From Mobula hypostoma (lineage: Eukaryota), in the NCBI RefSeq assembly GCF_963921235.1, contig NC_086097.1:162752001-162816000 (forward strand): a stretch of DNA of 64,000 bases, written 5' to 3'. Made by a program: the position numbers and the translations under genes. The notes below the pieces were generated by a model. That model was not told the origin of the DNA, made no database searches, and worked only from the letters and a program-made list of their open reading frames with translations. Numbering within the stretch: the stretch's first letter is position 1; each line of letters starts with the position of its first letter. Positions 3,452 to 57,980 of this stretch are shown here, in pieces.

Positions 3452-3667
3452 ACAAACAAGAGAAAATCTGCTGATGCTGGAATTCCAAGCAACAAACACA
3501 AAATGCTAGAGGAACTCAGCAGGCCAGGCAGCATCTATGGAAAAAAGTACAGTCGACATTTCGGGCTGACTCCTGCCGAAGGGTTTTGGCCCAAAACACT
3601 GACTGTACTCATTTCCATAGATGCTACCTGGCCTGCTGAGCTCCTTCAGCACTTTTTAGCGTGTTGT
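3452..3667. repeat. Foldback element of two inverted PLE terminal repeats centred on hammerhead remnants
   Basis: 3495-3570 is approximately the reverse complement of 3571-3667. Both arms match the PLE end at 13721-13828. Confidence 0.8.
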
Positions 3668-4289
3668 AAGATGTTTGTAAAGCTGATGTAGTACCTGACT
3701 ATCATAATATACTTTAACAAAGCAATGACACTGTTCTATGATGTGCAACACAATTTTGATCAAAAATAAACTTGTTGAAAAACTGGGACTTATCCTGTGG
3801 ATTATGAAATTGGCATTTTTTTCCTGGATTTTCTATGTGTTTGATGTACAGGGAACACGGGTCATGCACAGAGGTGTTCAATGATAGGTAATGCGTCCTT
3901 ATAGACCATGTTGGTAACACTCTCTCAATAACTGCTTGTCAGATGAAAGGGGCTCAGAGTGCTGCTCCTCAGTCAGATGCCCCTTTCCTGCTCCTCTGCC
4001 TTGTCAGTCACCTGAGTCACCTTATGACTCATCTGGGATCTGACAGGTTGTTTTAGGTCTCTGGCTACAGTTTACCTTGTTGGCCAGACTGTGGTGTAGA
4101 AGTCTCTTAGCCACCTGAAGTTTGTATGATCCCAGGGGGTCACATGAATGGCAATGGTGCTCAGCACACAAAATATTCTAACACTGTCAATGTATAGAAC
4201 CAATAGCACTGTGAACGTCTACTGTGAATGGCACAATGAATGTAAACAGAGCCGTGCACTATTGAGTGCTAGCGGAACATGCTGCTCGA

Positions 4290-4868
4290 GAAAGAGTTCA
4301 AAGTAAATTTATTATTAAAATACAAATATGCCACCATATACAACCTTGAGTTGCTTTTTCTTGCAGGCATACTCAGTTAATTCAATAACAATAGAATCAA
4401 TGTAGGACCGCACCCAACAGAGTGGACAACCAGTGTTCAAAAGACAACAAACTGTGCAAATCCGAGGAAAATAAATAACTATAGTACATAAGTAAGTAAT
4501 AAATATTGAGAACATGAGATGAGAAGTCTTTGTTAGTTGGTCCATAGGTTGTAGGAACAGTTCAGTGCTGGGGTGAGTGAAGTTATTTGCTCTAGTTCAA
4601 GAGCCTGATGGTTGAGGGGTAATAGTTGTTCCTGTACCTGATGGTGTAAGCTCTGAGGCTCCTGTACCATCTTCCTGATGGCAGCAGCAAGAAGAGAGCA
4701 TGGCCTGGATGGTGTGTGTCCTTGATGATGGATGCTGCTTTTCTGTGACAACACTGTGTGGATGTGATCAATGGTGGGGAGGGCTTCATCAGTGATGGAC
4801 TGAGCTGGACTCACTACTTTTTGTAGGATTTTCCATTCAAGGACATTAGTGTTTCCATACCAGGCTGA
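4290..4868 (-). mobile_element. Rex1/Babar-related LINE 3' fragment
   Basis: Minus ORF 4592-4789 (ASIIKDTHHPGHALFLLLPSGRWYRSL..YYPSTIRLLN) resembles the C-terminus of the 1277-2653 RT ORF. AATAAA on - near 4308. Confidence 0.7.
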
Positions 4869-5067
4869 CAGTGAAAACATGGGTAAAATTCCAGCTGTGT
4901 CAGTGCCTTTACAGTGATGGTTGAGATGAAGAACATGCACAACAGATTTCCAATCTGCCGGAAGTCAGTATGGACGTCTATGGCAATGCTGCTGTGCAGT
5001 GAATGGTGTATTTTGACTTATTGGAATATTAGGAGCAGACTAAATGTGTAATAATTCTATGTCGTAG

Positions 5068-5145
5068 CTTTTGTCAAGAATGGAGGAAACTGGCTTAGAT
5101 GCTGAGGGAATTCTGCGAGTACCTGGATCTACTTCACGGATGAAG
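5068..5145 (+). CDS. ARHGAP28: Rho GTPase-activating protein 28, internal exon (RhoGAP domain start, arginine finger GILR)
   Basis: tag|CTT...AAG|gtaaga. 78 nt, phase 0/0. LLSRMEETGLDAEGILRVPGSTSRMK. Confidence 0.92.
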
Positions 5146-5639
5146 GTAAGAGGGTCACTTCTCATTCTCCTTTTTGTGAACAGTATTTCATACACCAGTG
5201 GTCACTTGCTGCTTTATGTGAGGCTGCTAATCAATAAGAGATCACTGCTGTCAAAGGCTTTTCAACTATATATAAATGGTTAGGAGTTGGAAATATTATA
5301 AACACTTCCAGATAAATGTAAATGAATAAATAAAATTAAAGCTTTTGGTTAAAATATTCTAAAATAATAATAAATAATTCAGAATATTGAAATCAAGAAA
5401 AAGAAGTCAAAGATTTAATTACATCTTTTCCAGGGAGTTGGTGATTTTTAATTTTTGCTGAGCATTGCTAGTCCTGGTGTGAAGTGGCAGATATGAAGGG
5501 CAACCTCCTTTCTTTACTTCACTTCTCTGTTCAGAGTTGAGCCCACTGCAAAGAGGAAAGCCAAGTGCACTGCACTTAATCTCCACTTTGGCTCGGCTTG
5601 CTGAGCTTAACCGAGCGATTGAATGTTATTGATACCAGC

Positions 5640-5846
5640 TGAAGCCTGAGCAACTCTGCACCATCTGTATAGGGGGGAAGGAATTGTCAATGTTTCAGAT
5701 CAAAATCTTGCATCAGGGCCAACAACAAACCAAAACATCGACAGTTTGTTTCCTCCTACAGATGATGCCTGACCCTGTGAGTTCCTGCAGCAGATTGTTT
5801 GGTGCTCCAGAGTCAGAATCCGATTCCAGCATCTGCAATCTCTTGC
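5640..5846. repeat. Older diverged PLE-terminus foldback element
   Basis: Inverted arms. The minus arm reads gccCTGATGCaagattttgatctGAAAcattgac. The plus arm ends with the tail CCAGCATCTGCAATCTCTTG. Confidence 0.6.
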
Positions 5847-6305
5847 ATCCCTTGTTAGGTGGCATTGTCTGGTATAGTATCAGTCAGCTTGAACCAACCC
5901 TTTCGGACTCCACTCCAGTAATAGCTACCTGCAGGTCAGGCAGGGTTTGTGGCTTGTGTGACCCTTTAAAACTTCTCTCTTTGCAGTGGGGTGTAATGAT
6001 AATGGCCCAGATGTGCACGGATTTAGGGATTTCAACTGGAAAGAGCTGATAAGAAGTATTTGCAGATGTCACTTTTTAATAAATATTATTGGAGGATGGT
6101 TCTAGATGATGGCTCAATAAAAGGAAAAGCATCAAGCCAGGATGATATTTAATATAAACAAGGAATTAAATATCCCATGCTGAAACTTAAAATTGTACAT
6201 TTTCTGGGGAAATGGAGGGTTAATTTTAGTGTTCAGGTATGAGAATACTGAGAACATGCTGTGTACCTCTATAATTAGAACAAAAAGTAAGGGGTTTATG
6301 TAAAA

Positions 6306-6896
6306 CAGACATCCCACCTCTCCTGGAAGTTCCGGGAGTCTCCCGCATATTAATAGTAGCTCCCTGCTGCCCGCAAATTATATACAATATCATGGAAATC
6401 AATTTTTTTGAGAGCGAGTGAGAGAAAGCAAGAGAGAGCGCGAGAGCAATCACGAGAGAGCGTGAGCGAGAGCAAGCAAGCGAGCGAGAGAGAAAGCAAG
6501 CGAGAGCGCACGAGTGACCGAGAGAGAGAGAGAGAGAGAAAACACGAGAGCGCGCCATGGCAGGGTGTTCCAAAAAATATATAAATCCTACGTCACCCCA
6601 GACTACACTAAAGTGTACCCCTGCCTAATAGGGATCAAAATAATGACAGTGTTGCTCACTGCACTGTTTGCAACAATGACTTTTCTATTGCCCATGGTGG
6701 ATTAAGACTGTAAAAGACATGTTGAGGTGAGTTTAACAGGTGTCATTCGTTCATTAGCATTGCTAACGTTATTTAAACTAGCTGGCCAGCTGCTAAGGAG
6801 CTACTCTATTGCAGACATCCCACCTCTCCTGGAAGTCTCCCCGCAAATTGATGGTGCTACCTCCCTGAAATTAGTTTTTGCAGGGTGGGATGTCTG
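6306..6896 (+). mobile_element. Non-autonomous DNA transposon (hAT-like) with 13-bp TIRs and 6-bp TSD
   Basis: TIRs CAGACATCCCACC / GGTGGGATGTCTG. TSD GTAAAA (6300-6305, 6897-6902). Internal GA/GC microsatellite ~6410-6550. Frameshifted zinc-finger remnant AHCTVCNNDFSIAHGG..CKRHVE at 6654-6726. Confidence 0.85.
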
Positions 6897-8164
6897 GTAA
6901 AATATCCATGATTTTGCTTTCTAATTTTTTCTTATTTATGAATGTAAGCATTTTACAGGAAAGGTTTTGGGGGATTTGGAGTTAAGTGTGGCAAATGGGA
7001 CGAGTGTGGATGGGAATCTTGGTTGGTATGGACCAATTGGGCCTAAAGGCCCGACTTTATAACACTGAGTAGATTCTGCAGACACAGGATTCAATGGGCT
7101 ACATATCCATCTAATAATTATCATTTTTGAATCACTGTTTTGTGAAAGAAAGCATGAAGTGGTATTGAGGTTATGGAATTGCATATTCTGTTTCAACATT
7201 TCTCGTTTTTATCTGCATTTCTTGGCAAAAAGAGGTCACTTGGAGAGGAGTAGAAGATAGTCATGAGTGACTAATCCTTCAAGCATTTCCTTTGCTCTTT
7301 GTGTGGTGATCTTCTGCTGCCTTATATGTGCATTGAAAGACTGCAAGCTGCATGTATACCAAACATATGCTGTATTCTAAAGAGTCAAAGAACTGAAGGA
7401 ATCTGGAAAATTCACATCAGCTCATCATGGTCTCTCATTAAAAGATTCATCATGCTTCGCCTTTTAGTGGGATCTCAGCCTGGTCTCAAACATCACAGTG
7501 AGATCAGCAGGAATCGACCAGATGGATTTAAGTTTGTCCACAGCACCTTATGGAATCCTGAAAGTGTATGGCACAGAACCATTTGACCCATTATGTTTTT
7601 ACTGTGTCCTAACCTGAGCAGATTCTGATCCTTTCTTCCCAAGTAATGATATTAACAGGAGGGTGGAAGAATTCTTGGGGAAATTAGCAATGTCCACCTT
7701 CATGTTCATACAGCAGGTTTTGACGATGGCCCAAGTGGTACAGTTTGTGAAAAAGACACAGCGTTTTCCCTTTTCAATAGAGTAGATATGGGTCCCTGGC
7801 CCTGGGGAGGAGCATGAATGCTGTTCAGATCTGTTTAAATTTCCTCTCCCATCACACACCATGTTTTCCCATGTCGTGCAACCACATACCTCTCCTAGTG
7901 GTTTAGCAGCCACTGTTATCCTGCCCCATTTTTCCTAGCTGATAGCTTGGGCTCAGGCTGACTAGACCTGGGTTAAAATCTCCTTGAAGTTAGAATGGTG
8001 TGTTGCTCTTCTAAGTGACGATCTGAATTCAAATCAAGTTTTGGGTTCAGATTGACTTTGCCAGAAAGAGATCAAAATCTTTCCAATACAGTCGATGTGT
8101 TTAGTTTTAGTTCCCCTCCACACACTTTTTTTCACCGCACATACAAACAGCCTAGGAAATGAAT

Positions 8165-8355
8165 ACACATACAAAATGCAAGAGGAACTCAGCAGGTCAA
8201 GCTGGATTTATGGATGGAATTGAACAGTTGAGTTTTTGGCCTGAGACCCTTCATTAGGACTCTATGTGTTGTTCATTTCTCTCCATAGATTCTGCCTGAC
8301 TTGCTGAGCTCCTCAAGCATTTTATCAAGATGTCCAGCATCAGCAAGATCTCTTG
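8165..8355. repeat. PLE-terminus foldback element
   Basis: Minus arm with a decayed hammerhead (8226-8261), followed by a plus arm ending in the terminal tail. Confidence 0.7.
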
Positions 8356-8584
8356 AACTCAGGCAGTGTTCCAGCTGAGAATTTTGCTTCACTGCCTCTG
8401 CCTTATCCAAGTCTTCTTTAATTCATTCTCATCTCCTGTCACCTCCGTTCATCATTAACCTTCTTCCATAGTTCTACCCTCTCCTTCAACCAATCCATTT
8501 ACTTTATCACTGTGCCCTTCACCCTTTCCATTCTAGCCCTTGAGAAGCTGATCCTGTCTATTTCTGGAAAACTATGAATTGTGT

Positions 8585-9600
8585 GGAGCACAGAGATTTG
8601 GGTGTTTGTCTAAGCAAATCAGCACAGCTAGTACACGGGTAGAAAAACATAACTGGAAGGCAAATAGAACATTAGCTATTATTTCAAGAGGTAAGGAATT
8701 CAAAAATTGAGGGATTGATACTTTTGTGGTTAAGCCAATTTTTGCTACTGTATCTCCTGAATGACAAGTTGGTTTTTAAGAAGGCACAGGGGAGATTCTA
8801 TACTTTATTGTCACCAAACAATTGATACTAGAATGTACAATCATCACAGCAATATTTGATTCTGTGCTTCGCGCTCCCTGGAGTACAAATTGATAGTAAA
8901 TATTAAAAATTTAAATTATAAATCATAAATAGAAAATAGAAATGGGAAAGTACGGTAGTGCAAAAAAGCCGAGAGGCAGGTCCGGATATTTGCAGGGTAC
9001 GGCCCAGATCCGGGTCAGGGTCTGTTCAGCAGTCTTATCACAGTTGTAAAGAAGCTGTTCCCAACTCTGGCTGTACGAGTCTTCAAGCTCCTGAGCCTTC
9101 TCCCGGAGGGAAGAGGGACGAAAAGTGTGTTGGCTGGGTGGGTCGTGTCCTTGATTATCCTGGCAGCACTGCTCCGATATTCTTCAAGATAATGCAGGGC
9201 TAGGATGGTTTTTAAGGGTTAAATTAAATGAGACCAATAATATTTGGTTCAGTCTAGAAAATGCAAGGAGATTTAATTGTGTTCTTTAATGTTTTAATCA
9301 TAGTTAAAGAATATTTACATAAAATGTATTTCCTCTAGCAGAGAAATCCTAGCAAAGTTAGAGCTAGGCAATTAGGATTAGAATAAGGAAGCACTTTTCA
9401 CACATTGTCAATTTCAAACACACTTTTGCAAAAAGTTGTTGACTTCGGGCCAGCTGAACTTCAAGAATGAGATTGGTGGCTTTGATTGAGTGATGGATAT
9501 CAATGGATATGAAATAATGGTGAATAAATGGTGGAATAGCCACCTTGATTCAACTGAATGGTAGAATAAGCTAGAGGAGCTGAATTTTGTAGTACTATTC
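8585..9600 (+). mobile_element. Old CR1 fragment interrupted by a Rex1-like insertion
   Basis: CR1-like sequence resumes across the insert (aaggcacaggggagattct|tcaagataatgcaggg, similar to VQRRFTRMIPG). Outer boundaries approximate. Confidence 0.6.
8800..9178 (-). mobile_element. Rex1/Babar-related 3' fragment nested in CR1
   Basis: AATAAA on - at the left end. ATTCT direct repeat at 8795-8799 and 9179-9183. Confidence 0.7.
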
Positions 9601-10581: not shown

Positions 10582-10738
10582 AATTATCGCCAAGAGCTGG
10601 AGGCAAAATTTTACGAATCCTTTGACTGGGAACAAGTCCATCATAATGATGTAGCCTGTTTACTAAAGACCTTCATCCGAGAACTGCCCTACCCACTGCT
10701 CACAGCTGAGTATCTGCCTGCTTTTGCAGCTGTGCAAT
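10582..10738 (+). CDS. ARHGAP28: ARHGAP28 internal exon (RhoGAP domain)
   Basis: cag|AAT...CAA T|gtaaga. 157 nt, phase 0/1. NYRQELEAKFYESFDWEQVHHNDVACLLKTFIRELPYPLLTAEYLPAFAAVQ. Confidence 0.95.
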
Positions 10739-11843: not shown

Positions 11844-11926
11844 ATATCTCACAGACGAAGCTGCAGTTACAGGCCCTGCACCTTATCATCATGTTGCTGC
11901 CTGACCCCAACAGAGACATTATTAAG
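11844..11926 (+). CDS. ARHGAP28: ARHGAP28 internal exon (RhoGAP domain)
   Basis: ttttcag-like acceptor ctttcag|AT...AAG|gtatcc. 83 nt, phase 1/0. (Y)ISQTKLQLQALHLIIMLLPDPNRDIIK. Confidence 0.93.
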
Positions 11927-12145
11927 GTATCCCTGATCTCGAAGTATACATGATTGCATCTGAGCTTGTGTCAATCTCACACTGAGCGTATCTGACATTC
12001 ATTGTGTAAAAACAGTATTACTTACGTACAAATCTATATTCATGATACTGTGTATATTTGAACTTAGATTAATGTTTATCTCGTTGACTGTATATCTATT
12101 TGTAGATTAGATATACATGAGGGTCTTGTACATAACCTAATCAAT

Positions 12146-13828
12146 TCCCCCCTACCGCCACTCTCCTCCGTCTAGCGGAATTAGTCCTTACTCTTAATAA
12201 TTTCTCCTTTGGCTCCTCCCACTTCCTCCAAACTAAAGGTGTAGCCATGGGCACCCGTATGGGTCCCAGCTATGCCAGCCTTTTTGTTGGCTTTGTGGAA
12301 CAATCCATGTTCCAAGCCTGTACTGGTATCTGTCCTCCACTTTTCCTTTGCTACATCAATGACTGCATTGGCTCTGCTTCCTGCACGCATGCTGAGCTCA
12401 TTGACTTCATTAACTTTGCCTTCAACTTTCACCCTGCCCTCAAGTTTACCTGGTCCATTTCCGACACCTCCCTCCCCTTTCTTGATCTTTCTGTCTCAAT
12501 CTCTGGAGACAGCTTAACTACTGATGTCTACTATAAACCTACAGACTCTCACAGCCTGGACTATTCCTCTTCCCACCCTGTCACTTGCAAAAATGCCATC
12601 CCCTTCTCGCAATTTCTCCGTCTCCACCACATCTGCTCTCAGGATGAGGCTTTTCATTCCAGGACGAAGGAGATGTCCTCCTTTTTTAGAGAAAGGGACT
12701 TCCCTTCCTCCACCATCAACTCTGCTCTCAAATGCACCTCTCCCATTTCACGCATATCTGCTCTCACCCCATCCTCCCACCACCCCACTAGGAATAGGGT
12801 TCCCCTTGTCCTCACCTACCACCCCACCAGCCTCCAGGCCCAACATATAATTCTTTGTAACTTCTGTCACCTCCAACGGGATCCCACCACCAAGCACATC
12901 TTTCCCTCCCCCCCCCCCGCTTTCCGCAGGGATCGCTCCCTATGCGACTCCCTTGTCCATTCGTCCCCCCCATCCATTCCCACCGATCTCCCTCCCGGCA
13001 CTTATCCTTGTAAGCGGAACAAGTGCTACACATGCCCTTACACTTCCTCCCTTATCACCATTCAGGGCCCCAGACACTCCTTTCAGGTGAGGCGACACGT
13101 CACCTGTGAGTCGACTGGGGTGATATACTGCGTCCGGTGCTCCCGATGTGGCCTTCTTTATATTGGCAAGACCCGACGCAGGCTGGGAGACCATTTTGCT
13201 GAACAGCTACACTCTGTCTGCCAGAGAAAGCACGATCTCCTCAGTGGTCACACATTTTAATTCCATGTCCCATTCCCATTCTGATATGTCTGTCCACGGC
13301 CTCCTCTACTGGCAAGAGGAAGCCACACTCAGGTTGGAGGAACAACACCTTATATTCCGTCTGGGTAGCCTCCAACCTGACGGCATGAACATTGACTTCT
13401 CTAACTTCTGTTAATGCCCCACCTCCCCTTCGTGCCCCATCCCTTATTTATTTATTTTTCTTCCCCTTTTTTCTCTTTTTTTTTTCTCCCTCTGTCCCTC
13501 TCACTATAACTCCTTGCCCATCCTCTGGGCTTCCCCCTCCCTTTCCTTCTCCCTAGGACTCCCATCCCATGATCCTCTCCCTTCTCCAGCCTGGTATCCT
13601 TTTTGCCAATCAACTTTCTAGCTCTTAGCTCCATCCCTCCCCCTCCTGTCTTCTCCCATCATTTCGGATCTCCCCCTCCCCCTCCCACTTTCAAATCTCT
13701 TACTATCTCTTCTTTCAGTTAGTCCTGACGAAGGGTCTCAGCCTGAAATGTCGACTGTACCTCTTCCTATAGATGCTGCCTGGCCTGCTGCATTCACCAG
13801 CATTTTTTGTGTTTTTGTGTGTGTGTCT
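12146..13828 (+). mobile_element. 5'-truncated Penelope-like retroelement (RT plus GIY-YIG endonuclease) with pyrimidine-rich 3' region and terminal repeat
   Basis: GVAMGTRMGPSYASLFVG, YIND (from YIDD), LPFLDL, YYKPTDSH and GIY-YIG VIYCVRCSRCGLLYIGKTRRRL. Frameshift near 13240, after which the frame reads ..EEQHLIFRLGSLQPDGMNIDFSNF. Ends in (TG)n. Confidence 0.93.
13721..13756 (+). ncRNA. Minimal type I hammerhead ribozyme motif in PLE terminal repeat
   Basis: Stem I AGTC/GACT. Core CTGACGA (13725-13731). Stem II (A)GGG..CCT. GAAA (13745-13748). Cleavage triplet GTC (13750-13752). Stem III is loopless (ATGT, inferred consensus palindrome ACGT). Confidence 0.75.
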
Positions 13829-14685
13829 TAACATGAGTTTGCTGTAGAGTAGATACGCTTGAGATTTGCTACAGTTTCCTAGATACACCAATGCTCAAGG
13901 TTTAAATAGCGTTTCAATTCAATCTCTTAATGAATCTTTCTATATCTATAAAGATTAAAATGCATCTTCCTTTTTTTTAGATTTATTGATAGCAATTCTT
14001 TACTAGCAAGATATTTTGTGTTTGAGGCCAGCGATAAAATTTTTATCCTTTTTCTCTTTTCCCATTTTTGCTAAAAAGAATCACCCAACAGACAATTCCT
14101 CAGTGATGCTGATTATTTGTTGAGTGTGTTTTGCTTTGGGATTGTGGCTGGTATTTGAGGTGAGAGACTTGTGCTGAATATTGACAACAGAAAAGTACCT
14201 GGATTTCCATACCTCACCTTTCACCTCGCATCAACAGCCCCAGTGTGCAGATCTTTTTTCACTTCATGCATAATTAGGCTGGTATTTTCCACCAGACCAC
14301 AGGAAGAATAATTGTTATATCACCATATTTAAGAAAACCCATGGGTTGGTTAACAGAGTGGAATGAAAAGCATTGCAGTATTAGAAAGTAGAGTGAAAGT
14401 GTGATTCGACAATTTTGTGGTGAGGTTTGGGAGAGCATATTTTGCATGAACTTGTACTTACACACTATGTATAGCTAATTTGCATAGTTTGTCCTTTAGC
14501 TGGAATTTGTAGCTTGATACACAGGACCCAGATGCCTTAGGATTTTAAATTGTTTTGGAGCATGTATTGTTGAAAATGGGCCAGTTCTCCTTGCGTGGGA
14601 TTAATGAAAAATAAAATGTTGGGGGAGGGAGGGTGTGGGACAACCAGACTGAATCTCTTCCCTTACTTCCACCCCCAACCTCCAG

Positions 14686-14883
14686 GCTTTCTTGGAATTT
14701 CTCAGCAAAGTCGTAGCTAATGAAGCAAAAAACAGAATGAGCTTGTGGAATGTTTCCATGATTGTTGCACCAAACCTCTTCATGTGTAAAGGGAGAACTG
14801 GAAACCATCAAGAGGCAGAAGCAGCCACCAAGGCAGCCAATATTGTCCAGTTACTTATAAAATACCAGGACATCCTGTGGACG
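14686..14883 (+). CDS. ARHGAP28: ARHGAP28 internal exon (RhoGAP domain end)
   Basis: tccag|GCT...ACG|gtacgt. 198 nt, phase 0/0. AFLEFLSKVVANEAKNRMSLWNVSMIVAPNLF...LLIKYQDILWT. NRMSLWN is ARHGAP28-like. Confidence 0.95.
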
Positions 14884-16732
14884 GTACGTGAACCCAGTGA
14901 TGAATGCACTTTGATATGTAGACTGAGAATTTGAATGAAAATCAAAATTTGGCTTGGCAGGTCATATTAGATGTATGCCTTTTGCAACCTATCAGGAGAA
15001 AAATTACAGTGCCAATAAACTAGACCTTTTTAATAAGATATTTTTGAAAATTTCGCTTATTGTAAAGGAATCAAGGCTGTCAGCGATGAGAACTTCTCTT
15101 CTCATCAATGAGTCTGTATACTTTCCGAATGAGTAGTGAGTTCTGAGATCAGGCGTATCAAACAGGAAATGGCTGGAATATGTGTGTAGGTGTTGGTAGT
15201 GGGATGCCATGGGATGCTTCTAAGAATATCACCAACCAGTGTTGTAACTGCAGATCTTCAGGTGGTGAGTCCTACTTACAAAAGTCTTATGCAGTCAAAG
15301 AGCCTTTTGCTTGCCTTCAACAATATCATCAATGACAAAAATATGTCAAAAAAAAAAGAAAAAATACTAGATTTTCATTGGTGTTGATGATGATTGTCCT
15401 CCAGAATTACTGGAGGATTACTGGTTCTTCTAGATTTCAGAGATAAATAATTGTCCCTGATTGCAGAGCAGGATTGCATGGGCTTTTTAGATTGTTTTCT
15501 AATTAGAATGAACATTTTTATTAGTGGCTGGAAGGAAAGTGGTTCATTCCCGTAAAGACTGTGGCTCTGAGTTCACTTCAGAGAAAAATGATTGAAATAC
15601 TGTTGTCCTGTTAACTAAGTCAGTGAGTTAATCAAGATGCTGAACTAAATGCAAATCACAAGATTAAACTAGTTATGTAATCCTATTCAGAGAAGCTGGT
15701 TGCCCTTGATTACCATGATATTATGAAGGCTATTTCGCTGAGGCTGGTAATAAAAAAATGTTGATGAGACTTAAAGCACTCCCACGAACCCGTCATTTAC
15801 GTGATGATTTTAGAAGTTTTAATCACCGTCACTTTGCCAGGTTTCTAAAAAGGTTTGAAGACTTTTGTCATTGCCGTGTACATTCGAGTGTTGGGTAACC
15901 ATTCAGTACTGCAATTTGAACCTTCAGATGATCATTTGCTAATGAAATACTTTTCATTGATACAGATGTCATCCAGGGTGTTGTAGAGTGAAGAGTAACC
16001 TCTCATTTGACCTCAATTCGCTCTTTTAAGCTAGTGGAGATTTTACACAGTAGCATATATTTTAGAGCATTTAATAAATAAAAGTTGGACTTTCCCTTGT
16101 CTATACAGATGTTCAACTTTGCCTAGACATTTCAGAATTTGCATGCTGATAGTTTAGACTTGAGAAAAACAAAACGTCTGGATCGTTATTAACCTTTATA
16201 AGAAATTTTCATCTCCTCACCTAACCGGATATGACGATGATAAAAAAATACTGCAAAGCTTGCAAAGGAGGTGTAGGTTAGAGTATATGAATTCAGTATA
16301 AAATCAGGTACAGAAAGAGAAACAGAAGGAAGAGAATGGTTACGCCATAATTTTATTATATTCTTAAAATCACGAACAGCTTAAAGCCCAATGGAAGGAA
16401 TCTCCTTATTTATGAAGATTTATTTCAACGCTAGATGTTGACAAGCAGTAATTCATCAGACTGCTAACAGACTGTTTGGATTAATAAATGATAAAATATT
16501 TGAGTTCATCTTCAATAACATGCGGTATTCATGCCATTCATTCAGGTGGTGCGTGAGATGCTATTTTCAGGAAGGTAACAGTGGGACTTGTGCTGCAATC
16601 TTCACAGTTACAATTATTCCTGTGCAAACAATATTGTGTGTGGAGTATAGGGTTTCTGTTACTCTAAGAGGAACAATCTTGACTATTAAGCTTCATTGTT
16701 ATTAACTCTGATTCTTCTCTTATCTTACTCAG

Positions 16733-21786: not shown

Positions 21787-22605
21787 GGATTGTCCACTGA
21801 CATCTTTTACAAATCTACTGACTCCCTCAATTATCTTGAGTTTACCTCTTCCCACCCTGTCATTTGTAAAAATGTTATTTCCTTCTGTCGGTTCATACGT
21901 CTCTATTGCATCTGTTCTCAGGATGAGACTTTCTATTCTGGAATATTTGATATGTCCTCTTTTTTTTTAAACAACGGGCTTTCCCTTCCACTTCCCCATT
22001 GATACTGTCCTCACTTCATGTCTTCCTTTTCCCACACATCTGTCCACACCCGTCCTCCCACTATCATAACAAGGATAGGGCTCCCATTGTCCTTAGTTAC
22101 CACCCCATGAGCTTCTGTATTTAGGACATCACTCTCTGTAACTTCTGCCATCTCCAACAGGGTCCTACCACTAAGCACATCTTTCCCTCCCCTCCACTTT
22201 CTGGGGAGATCACTCTCTACATGACTCTCTTGTTCACCTGTCCCTCCCTGTTGATATCTCTTCTGGCACTTATCTCTGCAAACTGGACAAATGCTACACC
22301 TGCCCTTAAATTTGCTCCCTTACCACAATTCAGGGCTCTAAAATGTCCCTCCAGCTGAGGTGATATTTCAGCTGCGTGTCTGTCAGGGTCATTTGTCGTA
22401 TCTGGTGCTTCAGAGCGACCCCTACATCAGTGTGGGGATTGCTTCATCGAGCACCTTTGCTCTGTCTACTGCAGAAGACAGGATCTGCCCCATTATTCTG
22501 GTTTTGGCTCCTTCCTTCCGGTCTTAGACTGAAATACCAACTGTTTATTTCCCTCCGTAGATGCTGCCTGACTTGCTGAGTTTCTCCAGCATTTTGTCTG
22601 TGTTG
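21787..22605 (+). mobile_element. Decayed Penelope-like element
   Basis: STDIFYKSTDSLNYLEFTSSHPVICKNVI..ICSQDETF, colinear with 12518-13800, with internal deletions. Confidence 0.8.
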
Positions 22606-23977: not shown

Positions 23978-24069
23978 GAGAGCGCTGCCTGGACCTCAAC
24001 ACATACATTCTAGACTTGTACCATTTAAATCCCAATGCAACTTGGGTCATTAAACCCAGAACACTGTAA
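23978..24069 (+). CDS. ARHGAP28: ARHGAP28 last coding exon
   Basis: tttgcag|GA. (G)ERCLDLNTYILDLYHLNPNATWVIKPRTL, stop TAA. Confidence 0.95.
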
Positions 24070-37915: not shown

Positions 37916-38265
37916 AACACATTAAAGTTGCTGGTGAACGCAGCAGGCCAGGCAGCATCTCTAGGAAGAGGTACAGTCAATGTTTTGGGCCGAGACCCTT
38001 CGTCAGGACTAACTGAAGGAAGAGCTAGTAAGATATTTGAAAGGGGGAGGGGGAGATCTGAAATGATAGGATAAGACAGGGTGGGGAGGGGGGATGGAGC
38101 CAAGAGCTGGTCAGGTGATTGGCAAAAGGGATATGAGAGGATCATGGGACAGGAGGCCCAGGGAGGAAGAAAAGGGGGAGGAGGGGAAAAAGCCCAGAGG
38201 ATGGGCAAGGGGTATAGTGTGTGTTGCTTGAAATTCCAGCATCTGCAGATTTCCTCGTGTTTGCA
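37916..38265 (-). mobile_element. PLE insertion with inverted terminal tail and 11-bp TSD
   Basis: TSD GTTAATTAATT (37905-37915, 38266-38276). Minus copy 37916-38217 with hammerhead at 37975-38010, then a plus-oriented tail at 38218-38265. Confidence 0.85.
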
Positions 38266-41999: not shown

Positions 42000-42476
42000 G
42001 CCCTCCGTCAGGACTAACTGAAAGAAGAGCTAGTAAGAGATTTGGGAGGGGCGATCCAAAATGATAGGAGAAGACAGGAGGGGGAGGGATGGAGCCAAGA
42101 GCTGGACAGTTGATTGGCAAAAGGGATACAGAGCAGGAGAAAGGCGAGGATCATGGGATGGGAGGTCAGGGGCGAAAGGGGAGGGGGGGGAGGACCCAGA
42201 AGGTGGGCAAGTAGTGAGAGGGAGAAAAAAAGGGGGGGGAGAAGAAAAATAAATAAATGAGGGATGGGGTACAAAGGGGAGGTGGGGCATTAGCGTAAGT
42301 TAGGGAAGTCAATGTTCATACCATCAGGTTGGAGGCTACTCAGATGGAATATAAGGTGTTGTTCCTCCACCCTGAGTGTGGCTTCATCTTGACAGTAGAG
42401 GAGGCCGTGGATAGACGTATCAGAATGGGAATGGGACGTGGAATTAAAACGTGTGGCCACTTGGAGATCCTGCTTT
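42000..42476 (-). mobile_element. PLE 3' fragment truncated within the hammerhead
   Basis: Reverse complement of 13225-13735. Stops at agtcCTGACGGAGGG. Confidence 0.85.
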
Positions 42477-42702
42477 CAACCCGATGAGATTGTTGTATTT
42501 GGTTTAATTTCTAAAAACAGACGGGAGCAGTGTAGGAACTTTATTTGCACAGTATTCAAGTGCAGCCTCCTGTATTAGGCTTGGTCTTTTTGCACCTCCT
42601 CCAATCCCACCAGACTGCTGCTGGAGTAGTAGTGTGACTGGTCAGCACACCTTTGTTCTGGCTCAGTTCATCCCATAAATAAAAGTGTGCCCAACCCAAT
42701 GG

Positions 42703-51638: not shown

Positions 51639-51680
51639 TTCTTTCCAAGTACTACAACTGACTGAGGATAACTTGGGAAC

Positions 51681-51871
51681 ACACACTAAATGTTGGAAAA
51701 CTCAGCAGGCCAGGCTGCATCTTTGGAAACGTTGAGTCCTGGTTAAGGGTCTCGGCCCAAAATGTCGACTGTTCACTCTTTTCCATAGATGCTGCCTGGC
51801 CTGCTGAGTTCCTCCAGCATTTTGTGTATGTCTCTCTGGATTTCCAGCATCTGCAGATTTTCTTGTGTTTG
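51681..51871. mobile_element. Minimal PLE-terminus foldback insertion with 12-bp TSD
   Basis: TSD TAACTTGGGAAC (51669-51680, 51872-51883). Inverted arms around a degenerate hammerhead at 51735-51770. Confidence 0.85.
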
Positions 51872-56307: not shown

Positions 56308-57346
56308 GCAAACAAGAGAAAATCTGCCGATGCTGGAAATCCAAGCAACACACACAAAATGCTGGTAGAACTCAGCAGGCCAGGCAGCATCTATGGAAAA
56401 GAGTACAGTACAGGACTGGAGGAGAAAAGATGGGGAGTAGATTTAAAAGGTGGGGGGGAGGGGAGAGAGAAACACAAGGAGATAGGTGAAACTGGGAGGG
56501 GGAGGGGTGAAGTAAAGAGCTGGGAAGTTCATTGGTAAAGGAAATATGGGACTGGAGAAGGGGGAATATAATAGGAGGACAGAAGGCCATGGAAGAATGA
56601 AAAAGGGAGGAGCAGGACAGGCAAGGAGATAGGTGAGAGAGGGAAAAGGGAGGGTGGGGCCTTACCAGAAGTTTGAGAAGTCGATGTTCATGCCATCAGG
56701 TTGGAGGCTACCCAGACGGAATATCAGGTGCTGTTCCTCTGACCTGAGTGTAGCCTCATGGAGGCCATGGATAGACATAATGAGGCCTGATGTAGATTGG
56801 GAGGCTGCTTCGATGAGCACCTTCGCGAAAAGAAGGGGGATTTCCCAGTTGCCACCCATTTTAATTCCACTTCCCATTCTGGTATGTCTATCTATGGCCT
56901 CCTCTTACTGTCACGATGAGGCCACACTCAGGTTGGGGAAACACCACCTTTTATGTCGTCTGAGTAGCCTCCAACCTGATGGCATGAATTTTGATTTCTC
57001 GAACTTCTGGTAATTTCCCCCCTGCCCCTCACCATTCCCCATCCCCTTTTCCCTCTCTCACCTTATCTCCTTCCCTGCCCATCGCTTCCCTCTGGTGCTC
57101 AGCTCTTTTTTTCTTTCTTCCATGGCCTTCCGTCCTCTCCTATTAGATTCCCCCTTCTTCAGCCCTGTATCTTTTTCACCAATCAACTTCCCAGCTCTTT
57201 ACTTCACCCCTCCCCCTAGTTTTTAAATCTACTCCTCATTTTTTTTCTCTCCAGTCCTACTAAAGGGCTTCAGTCCGAAATGTTGACTGTACTCTTTTCC
57301 ATAGATGCAGCCTGGCCTGCTGAGTTCCTCCAGCATTTTGTGTGTG
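56308..57346. mobile_element. Inverted pair of PLE 3' ends inserted as one unit, 12-bp TSD
   Basis: TSD TTACCTCATGAA (56296-56307, 57347-57358). Minus arm ~56308-56777, plus arm ~56790-57346. Both encode ..LQPDGMN.DFSNFW. Confidence 0.9.
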
Positions 57347-57897
57347 TTACCTCATGAAATGTGATTTACCACTGGACCCAACAATTGATGCCTCCTTTTA
57401 CTCTCAAAATTATTGCTCTCACCGATCAATTGCTGGTCAGGCTTCATTTGACAACTAACAACAGCTTGTATTTCTATACCAACGTTAACAAGGTATATAA
57501 TTTGGAGATGTTTCAGGTGCATAATTGAACAAAATGTAATATTTAGCCGCCTGGGGAATAAAAGAAATTGTTTTTAAAGACAGCCCTGCAAGAGAAGACA
57601 TAGAAATCCTGGGAGGTTTGGGAGACTGTGTGGTTTACACATGCTAACATTTTTTAATCAAAGTGGGAATACTCAAATGGTGGATTTTCATGAGGTTCTA
57701 TTGTAACTTCACTGGAGGAGTTAAAGCTTTCTACAGCTCTGCCCTTGAAATTTACCAAGAAAGGAAACACTTACAAAAAATACTCCAAATTTAACTTGGA
57801 AGAGAAGCAACAGAAGAAAGACTTAACAGAAGTTCACAAAACTAGGAAAAGCTGAATAAGAAGGAATTCCTCTCCTTAGCATAAAAGGTAATAACCA

Positions 57898-57980
57898 GTC
57901 TTGGCCCGAAATGTCAACTGTACCTCTTCCTATAGATGCTGCCTGGCCTGCTGTGTTCCACCAGCATTTTGGGTGTGTTG
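57898..57980 (+). repeat. Short PLE terminal repeat fragment
   Basis: tcttggcccGAAAtgtcaactgtacctcttcctatagatgctgcctggcctgctg, which is the 3' half of the hammerhead plus the repeat. Confidence 0.75.

Follow-up and report, generated by a model that had tools for sequence, protein, structure and literature searches.

The window, a stretch of 64,000 nucleotides of Mobula hypostoma DNA, carries part of the gene ARHGAP28 on its plus strand. An exon at 10582-10737 encodes RhoGAP sequence that is 100% identical to the M. hypostoma protein named ARHGAP28, and this protein maps to plus-strand exons from 44 kb upstream of the window through a stop near position 24066. Protein mapping and contig joins place two further exons at 11844-11926 and 14686-14886 (both +), and between them lies an intron of 2,759 nt (11927-14685, +) with GT..AG ends. 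Splice joins across 11927-14685, again with GT..AG, were present in contigs of two sequencing runs presumed to be RNA. Since the exons are on the plus strand and the joins span this interval, the hammerhead motif that is the subject of this analysis lies in sense inside the intron, as a preliminary description of this DNA had proposed. A search over 200 kb upstream did not find the first coding exon, holding the first 41 codons, and its absence there suggests that the first coding intron exceeds 155 kb.

The intron contains a 5'-truncated, Neptune-type Penelope-like element (PLE) at 12130-13830 (+). Its bounds were taken from empty sites, one contig in each of two other organisms, that join the flank before 12130 directly to the flank after 13830, and the age of the insertion is read from these two contigs. 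The unit measures about 3.7 kb in all; the insertion comprises about 1.7 kb of it, terminates in a GT-rich run and lacks an optional tail; it is bordered by an imperfect target-site-like duplication recognized in the sequence (left copy 12123-12133, right copy 13825-13834, both +). A stop-free frame of 374 codons (12136-13257, +) encodes the C-terminal part of a reverse transcriptase (RT), the thumb/linker region, a CX4CxxC motif and the start of a GIY-YIG domain. The end of the GIY-YIG domain is in another frame (13227-13414, +, with the stop at 13412-13414), the frameshift being near 13241, and is followed by the 3' untranslated part or pseudo-LTR (pLTR) that holds the hammerhead (13415-13830, +).

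An RT followed by a C-terminal GIY-YIG domain in one ORF was recognized with 107 longer homologs (E value <=1e-20), most of them annotated as RT (PF00078) and some as PF01541; the GIY-YIG match inside the window itself is weak (E value 0.043). A CX2-5CxxC linker upstream of the GIY-YIG domain is present in the translation as CX4CxxC. This linker motif is absent in Penelope and Poseidon (PMC8557442), so these two clades are excluded and Neptune is indicated. The motif together with the host points to the Neptune clade, with the qualification that Nematis has the linker motif too. Among 12 long-frame loci examined from at least 150 listed, two (L181 and L188) have the arrangement pLTR-ORF-pLTR and carry two hammerheads on one strand, spaced by 3,728 and 3,514 nt. 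The window copy retains no more than the 3' half, with a single ribozyme; over the coding part it is 88-92% identical to 21 long copies. In the window there are at least ten further fragments of the window-copy family and of older families, including those at 37916-38219 (-), 42001-42477 (-), 21796-22604 (+), 51678-51827 and 56347-57979, and none fits the full descriptor given below. Elsewhere in the genome, two young copies (L182 and L183) have open frames of more than 1,000 codons that reach a natural stop, which suggests that the ray Neptune family may still be active.

The motif is a minimal type I hammerhead without loop III at 13721-13756 (+), with a predicted cut at 13752/13753 and the architecture reported in PMC4209133. 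Its letters and coordinates agree with the preliminary description and read AGTC (13721-13724), CTGACGA (13725-13731), AGGGTCTCAGCCT (13732-13744), GAAA (13745-13748), TGTC (13749-13752) and GACT (13753-13756). The invariant core is complete as had been stated, with C3 U4 G5 A6 N7 G8 A9, G12 A13 A14 A15.1, U16.1 and H17 all present; C3 to A9, with C at position 7, occupy 13725-13731 (+). A short helix I joins the 5' and 3' ends through four Watson-Crick pairs, between the 5' arm at 13721-13724 (+) and 13753-13756, plus one possible wobble, U13720-G13757. An extra A at 13732 (+), typical of PLE minimal hammerheads (PMC4209133), sits between positions 9 and 10.1 and was retained in 49 of 50, 55 of 55 and 28 of 31 copies in three age classes. 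Helix II, at 13733-13744 (+), pairs GGGU with GCCU around a CUCA loop and closes with G10.1-U11.1. G12 A13 A14 A15.1, one half of the dimer helix III, U16.1 and C17 follow at 13745-13752 (+), the helix III half being AUGU in the window copy. The register of helix II in the preliminary description was off by one, A13732 being the extra base: the GGGU/GCCU register was predicted at 0.86-0.95 versus 0.04 for the alternative. That alternative register, with an A-U closing pair and no extra base, was disfavoured by folding. The hammerhead lies in the 3' repeat of the window copy and in both repeats of loci L181 and L188, and its single occurrence on a coding element sets it apart from the tandem, non-coding retrozymes.

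The bare pattern CTGANGA..GAAA occurs in the window at chance level (5 matches versus 6.2 expected). The full descriptor, consisting of the core, a 4-bp stem I, a 3-bp stem II and a pairable 15.2/16.2 segment, matched once in the window and in none of 200 first-order shuffles, so that no second core-bearing copy was found in the window by this descriptor. The earlier assignment to the PLE minimal type I hammerheads without loop III is borne out. The Rfam search that had also been recommended as a check fails for this minimal form; the covariance models gave no hammerhead match at gathering score across the window and none at E values up to 10 within 13000-14500.

Relative to its older relatives the window copy differs within the motif at 13740 in the loop (A in the window copy, G in the family), at 13744 (position 11.1) and at 13749 (position 15.2), and these differences from the family are CpG transitions, as the preliminary description had it. 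Two of the three changes hit the 10.1-11.1 pair and the centre of the dimer helix. The former is G-U in place of the G-C formed with the C of older relatives; the latter turns the palindromic ACGU of the family at 15.2-16.2 into AUGU, with two tandem wobbles in a homodimer. On comparison of the copies, the dimer palindrome is inherited and is degraded in the window copy. Among copies that share the upstream diagnostics, a set that includes a few old-family rows, CTG was found in 4, CCA in 4, CCG in 13 and CGG in 1; since CTG is as frequent as CCA, U11.1 in the window copy is likely a product of CpG decay. The earlier view that the CpG changes are compatible with wobble pairing stands, but they do not appear harmless: besides producing G10.1-U11.1, they move the predicted energy of the helix III duplex from -1.7 kcal/mol (ACGU) to +2.6 kcal/mol (AUGU).

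Nearest-neighbour energies, which disregard core tertiary contacts and are indicative only, placed the active homodimer fold of the window copy at -7.2 versus -18.6 kcal/mol for two monomers, that of intact C11.1 copies at -16.7 versus -25.8 kcal/mol, and that of intact U11.1 copies at -11.5 versus -22.0 kcal/mol. Since the intact copies are also 9-10 kcal/mol above two monomers, these energies set the window copy apart only modestly, helix III excepted. When the window copy was modelled as a heterodimer, with either of the two nearest sense copies or with an intact copy of the family, the active fold was still 7.5-10.6 kcal/mol above two monomers, and the heteroduplex helix III with an intact partner contains one wobble only, at a predicted +0.1 kcal/mol. 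Stem I had a predicted probability of 0.03-0.10 in 80-135 nt of native context and was favoured only in the isolated 38-mer; intact copies lose stem I in context as well. In the monomer model of the isolated motif, G5-G8 is predicted to pair with positions 15.2-17 (13749-13752), giving an inactive rod.

Across the genome, 65,458 strict matches to a 32-nt degenerate pattern of the motif and 97,822 matches to an independent downstream anchor were found, with 0 for the reversed control of each, and the matches to both were divided evenly between the strands. In a tree of 37 copies built from 375 non-CpG columns outside the ribozyme, where the placement of the window copy is indicative, that copy was basal in a recent radiation and adjoined C11.1 copies; its terminal branch, at 0.053, was among the longest. 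Changes at non-CpG core positions versus other positions numbered 3/450 versus 17/2800, 15/495 versus 128/3187 and 22/302 versus 151/1636 in the three age classes, based on 136 of 145 aligned copies. These rates give no preferential conservation of the core among copies (Fisher p 0.75, 0.38 and 0.32), and although some loci had been retrieved by a core-containing pattern, a bias toward an intact core, no excess was seen. When the old lineages are compared with the young, differences fall on 2 of 36 ribozyme positions versus 13 of 44 downstream positions (p 0.008), the old lineage set being mixed and the downstream count being raised by indels. Neutrality among copies combined with retention between lineages suggests that the motif is maintained in active master elements and decays freely once inserted. 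A lack of preferential core conservation, which the preliminary description had named as evidence against its reading, is thus found among genomic copies and not between master lineages.

The variants carried by these lineages may bear on what the hammerhead contributes. U11.1 is fixed in the youngest subfamilies on the sequences compared: in the GCRCC subfamilies, so called from a marker just 3' of the motif, U11.1 numbered 34,025 versus 563 for C11.1. The GTACC subfamilies (21,284 matches) are mixed, with about 58 U and 39 C counted by eye in the first 100 rows. All 12 long-frame loci have U11.1 in the 3' ribozyme, and L181 and L188 have it in both ribozymes. Because the youngest copies, with intact ORFs, carry U11.1, this state may be tolerated. 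A core with A6C gave 414 strict matches genome-wide, and 13 of 20 inspected A6C loci (L121-L140) share old-family flanks; A6C is reported to be a natural variant of low activity (PMC3088659) that prefers manganese (PMC7151607). The size of the effect of G10.1-U11.1 on cleavage was not found under those position labels in the literature available to us. In the most prolific recent lineage, then, G10.1-U11.1 became fixed in the two ribozymes of elements with an intact ORF, and A6C was carried by an older lineage as it spread; if both are poor cutters, this would be a natural experiment in which PLEs rise to copy numbers in the tens of thousands with a hammerhead that is weakened, a tentative reading that we think has perhaps one chance in a few of being right. 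Amplification with a weak ribozyme, if true, would bear on the question of whether the hammerhead is useful to the PLE or only a rider; PMC8557442 raised the possibility that hammerheads are simply parasites of PLEs. A dated series of natural variants (C11.1, U11.1 and A6C) tied to amplification success makes the role of the PLE hammerhead testable.

The ends of genomic copies were also compared with the predicted cut site. In one respect the copies fit the published behaviour of the class: the anchored ones, the window copy among them, retain sequence 3' of the cut site, and those of sufficient length mostly run through it, which suggests that their templates were uncut or religated there. 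With patterns that left out the TATA subfamilies, 288 copies had a 5' end exactly at the cut site versus 70 at a control position 3 nt downstream. Thirty loci with cut-site ends were inspected and were mostly inversion junctions with short microhomology, along with a few small deletions; only one of the 30 joins clearly unrelated DNA. Genome-wide, the 5' ends of short copies accumulate not at the cut site but on the opening base of stem I, with 2,095 junctions, and 10 of 97 anchored copies have their 5' end at 13720-13722. A transcription start or a fold-back stop in reverse transcription would explain these stem I ends. Many copies form head-to-head pairs of short 3' ends with a microhomology joint near the ribozyme, for example L003/L004, L021/L022 and 3496-3638 of the window.

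Core-bearing copies in and around ARHGAP28 were compared with the orientation of the gene. Over 230 kb searched, five were sense and four antisense; this is an incomplete count of copies per ARHGAP28 pre-mRNA, the first coding exon not having been located. Besides the window motif, the sense copies lie upstream at about 41, 52, 113 and 159 kb from it, and the two nearest (41 and 52 kb) sit in a different intron; the four antisense copies are upstream as well. A branch-point-like heptamer, a pyrimidine tract and an AG occupy 13701-13718 of the window, 3 nt 5' of stem I, and in some subfamilies the heptamer is a perfect TACTAAC. The AG near 13718 could serve as a cryptic splice acceptor in sense introns, and in the Penelope element of Drosophila virilis an intron end has been described at helix I (PMC4209133). 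No joins using an acceptor near 13718 were among the 15 joints listed of 285.

Taken together, these data make it very probable that 13721-13756 is the 3' minimal hammerhead of a truncated Neptune-type PLE copy in an ARHGAP28 intron, and that it is now a passive, decaying passenger without meaningful cutting of the host pre-mRNA. The parent element is built as pLTR-ORF-pLTR, its two hammerheads lying on the same strand at a distance of about 3.5-3.7 kb, and the window copy kept only the 3' one. By analogy with its class, such a ribozyme would need to dimerize via the ACGU palindrome, would be weak even then, and might depend on the protein of the element itself. CpG deamination after insertion would then have altered position 15.2, probably 11.1, and the loop, and folding models suggest that the RNA adopts inactive alternatives before a partner arrives. 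Some points run counter to complete inertness. The invariant core and GUC triplet are complete, with both changes still permitting wobble pairs, and family-like sequence is present at depth in the two runs presumed to be RNA, so that trans partners may exist. The earlier suggestion of an effectively intact copy with the potential to cut the pre-mRNA was not supported, given the changes in the 10.1-11.1 pair and the dimer helix, the single ribozyme of the insertion, the distance to the nearest sense copies, the low probability of stem I in context and the empty intron of two other organisms. The motif is most likely immaterial to ARHGAP28, being one decayed repeat copy among about 100,000.

The alternative that survives best is conditional activity, in which abundant Neptune RNA or protein would allow pairing in trans and cutting of a small, unselected share of the ARHGAP28 pre-mRNA or of the excised intron. 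The intact core, the single wobble of the heteroduplex helix III and the roughly 100,000 genomic copies are in keeping with it, as is the protein-assisted cleavage described for an anole element (PMC11167929). We nevertheless consider it improbable, since stem I is predicted to be disfavoured in context, even intact dimers cleave weakly (PMC4209133), core-bearing copies show no orientation bias in ARHGAP28, and spliced joins across the intron were seen, in individuals that may or may not carry the insertion. If sense intronic copies were open to cutting in trans, latent cut sites would be present in thousands of ray genes; nothing in the analysis shows such cutting.

That the motif might instead be a domesticated intronic ribozyme regulating ARHGAP28 processing, like the hammerheads of amniote RECK and C10orf118, is very unlikely. 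Its sense orientation within an intron and the amniote precedent (PMC6155905) would suit such a role, but the orthologous intron is empty in two other organisms, which argues that this is not a conserved intronic ribozyme; moreover, without a loop III there is no monomer fold, and the copy shows ordinary CpG decay and a long terminal branch. A chance match to the hammerhead consensus without ribozyme ancestry, to which the chance-level bare pattern and the silence of Rfam might point, is less credible still given the full-descriptor result, the presence of the motif in each of the two pseudo-LTRs of full-length elements, the features known from the class (an extra nucleotide, a GG/CC helix II and the palindrome; PMC4209133), and the retention of ribozyme positions between old and young lineages.

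Viewed as a decaying PLE passenger, the motif can be set beside several known systems. Minimal hammerheads have been reported for Xena, Poseidon and Neptune elements of fishes; in PLE minimal hammerheads one nucleotide separates 9 from 10.1, the G10.1-C11.1 pair is highly conserved and the 15.2-16.2 segment is palindromic; a lone minimal hammerhead gave no cleavage and dimers gave low cleavage (PMC4209133). With the PLE hammerheads of Cervera and De la Pena (2014; PMC4209133) the ray family shares the type I form, the short helix I, the missing loop III, the extra nucleotide, the pseudo-LTR location, a family-level palindrome and thousands of mostly single copies per genome. The window copy departs from them in having G10.1-U11.1 instead of G-C and a broken palindrome, and copies in the ray are about ten times as numerous as the 4,000-9,000 given for coelacanth and Xenopus. 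In contrast to the Neptune elements among the EN+ PLEs of PMC8557442, the window copy is 5'-truncated and frameshifted. No shark or ray names were found in the supplement files of PMC4209133 that were searched, and no description of the ray Neptune family was found in the literature searched on Penelope-like elements or hammerheads of cartilaginous fish.

The Poseidon element PAc of Anolis carolinensis resembles the ray element in that a hammerhead adjoins the start of the ORF and genomic copies come in two 3' forms, one ending in a tail of about 36 nt and one lacking it (PMC11167929). Unlike the ray element, Poseidon is without the linker motif, and the first in-frame Met, which lies inside the ribozyme in PAc, is about 130 nt downstream of it in the ray element. 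The PAc ribozyme cuts only with the element's protein, yet catalytic mutants still insert in vitro, making the hammerhead dispensable there, and no RNA-seq reads were reported to terminate at the cut site (PMC11167929). The amniote hammerheads of RECK, C10orf118/CTCL and DTNB are likewise type I, sense and intronic; they are conserved across species and cleave in vitro, whereas the window motif belongs to a lineage-specific repeat copy and cannot form helix III alone. Non-LTR retrozymes, reported in one chondrichthyan, also have a type I hammerhead derived from PLE pseudo-LTRs (bioRxiv 10.64898/2026.07.22.740005), but they are non-coding tandem repeats, whereas the window motif stands alone and is joined to coding sequence for RT/endonuclease. 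The type of motif found here is already known from Penelope-like elements, and the window copy is a further, degraded instance of it.
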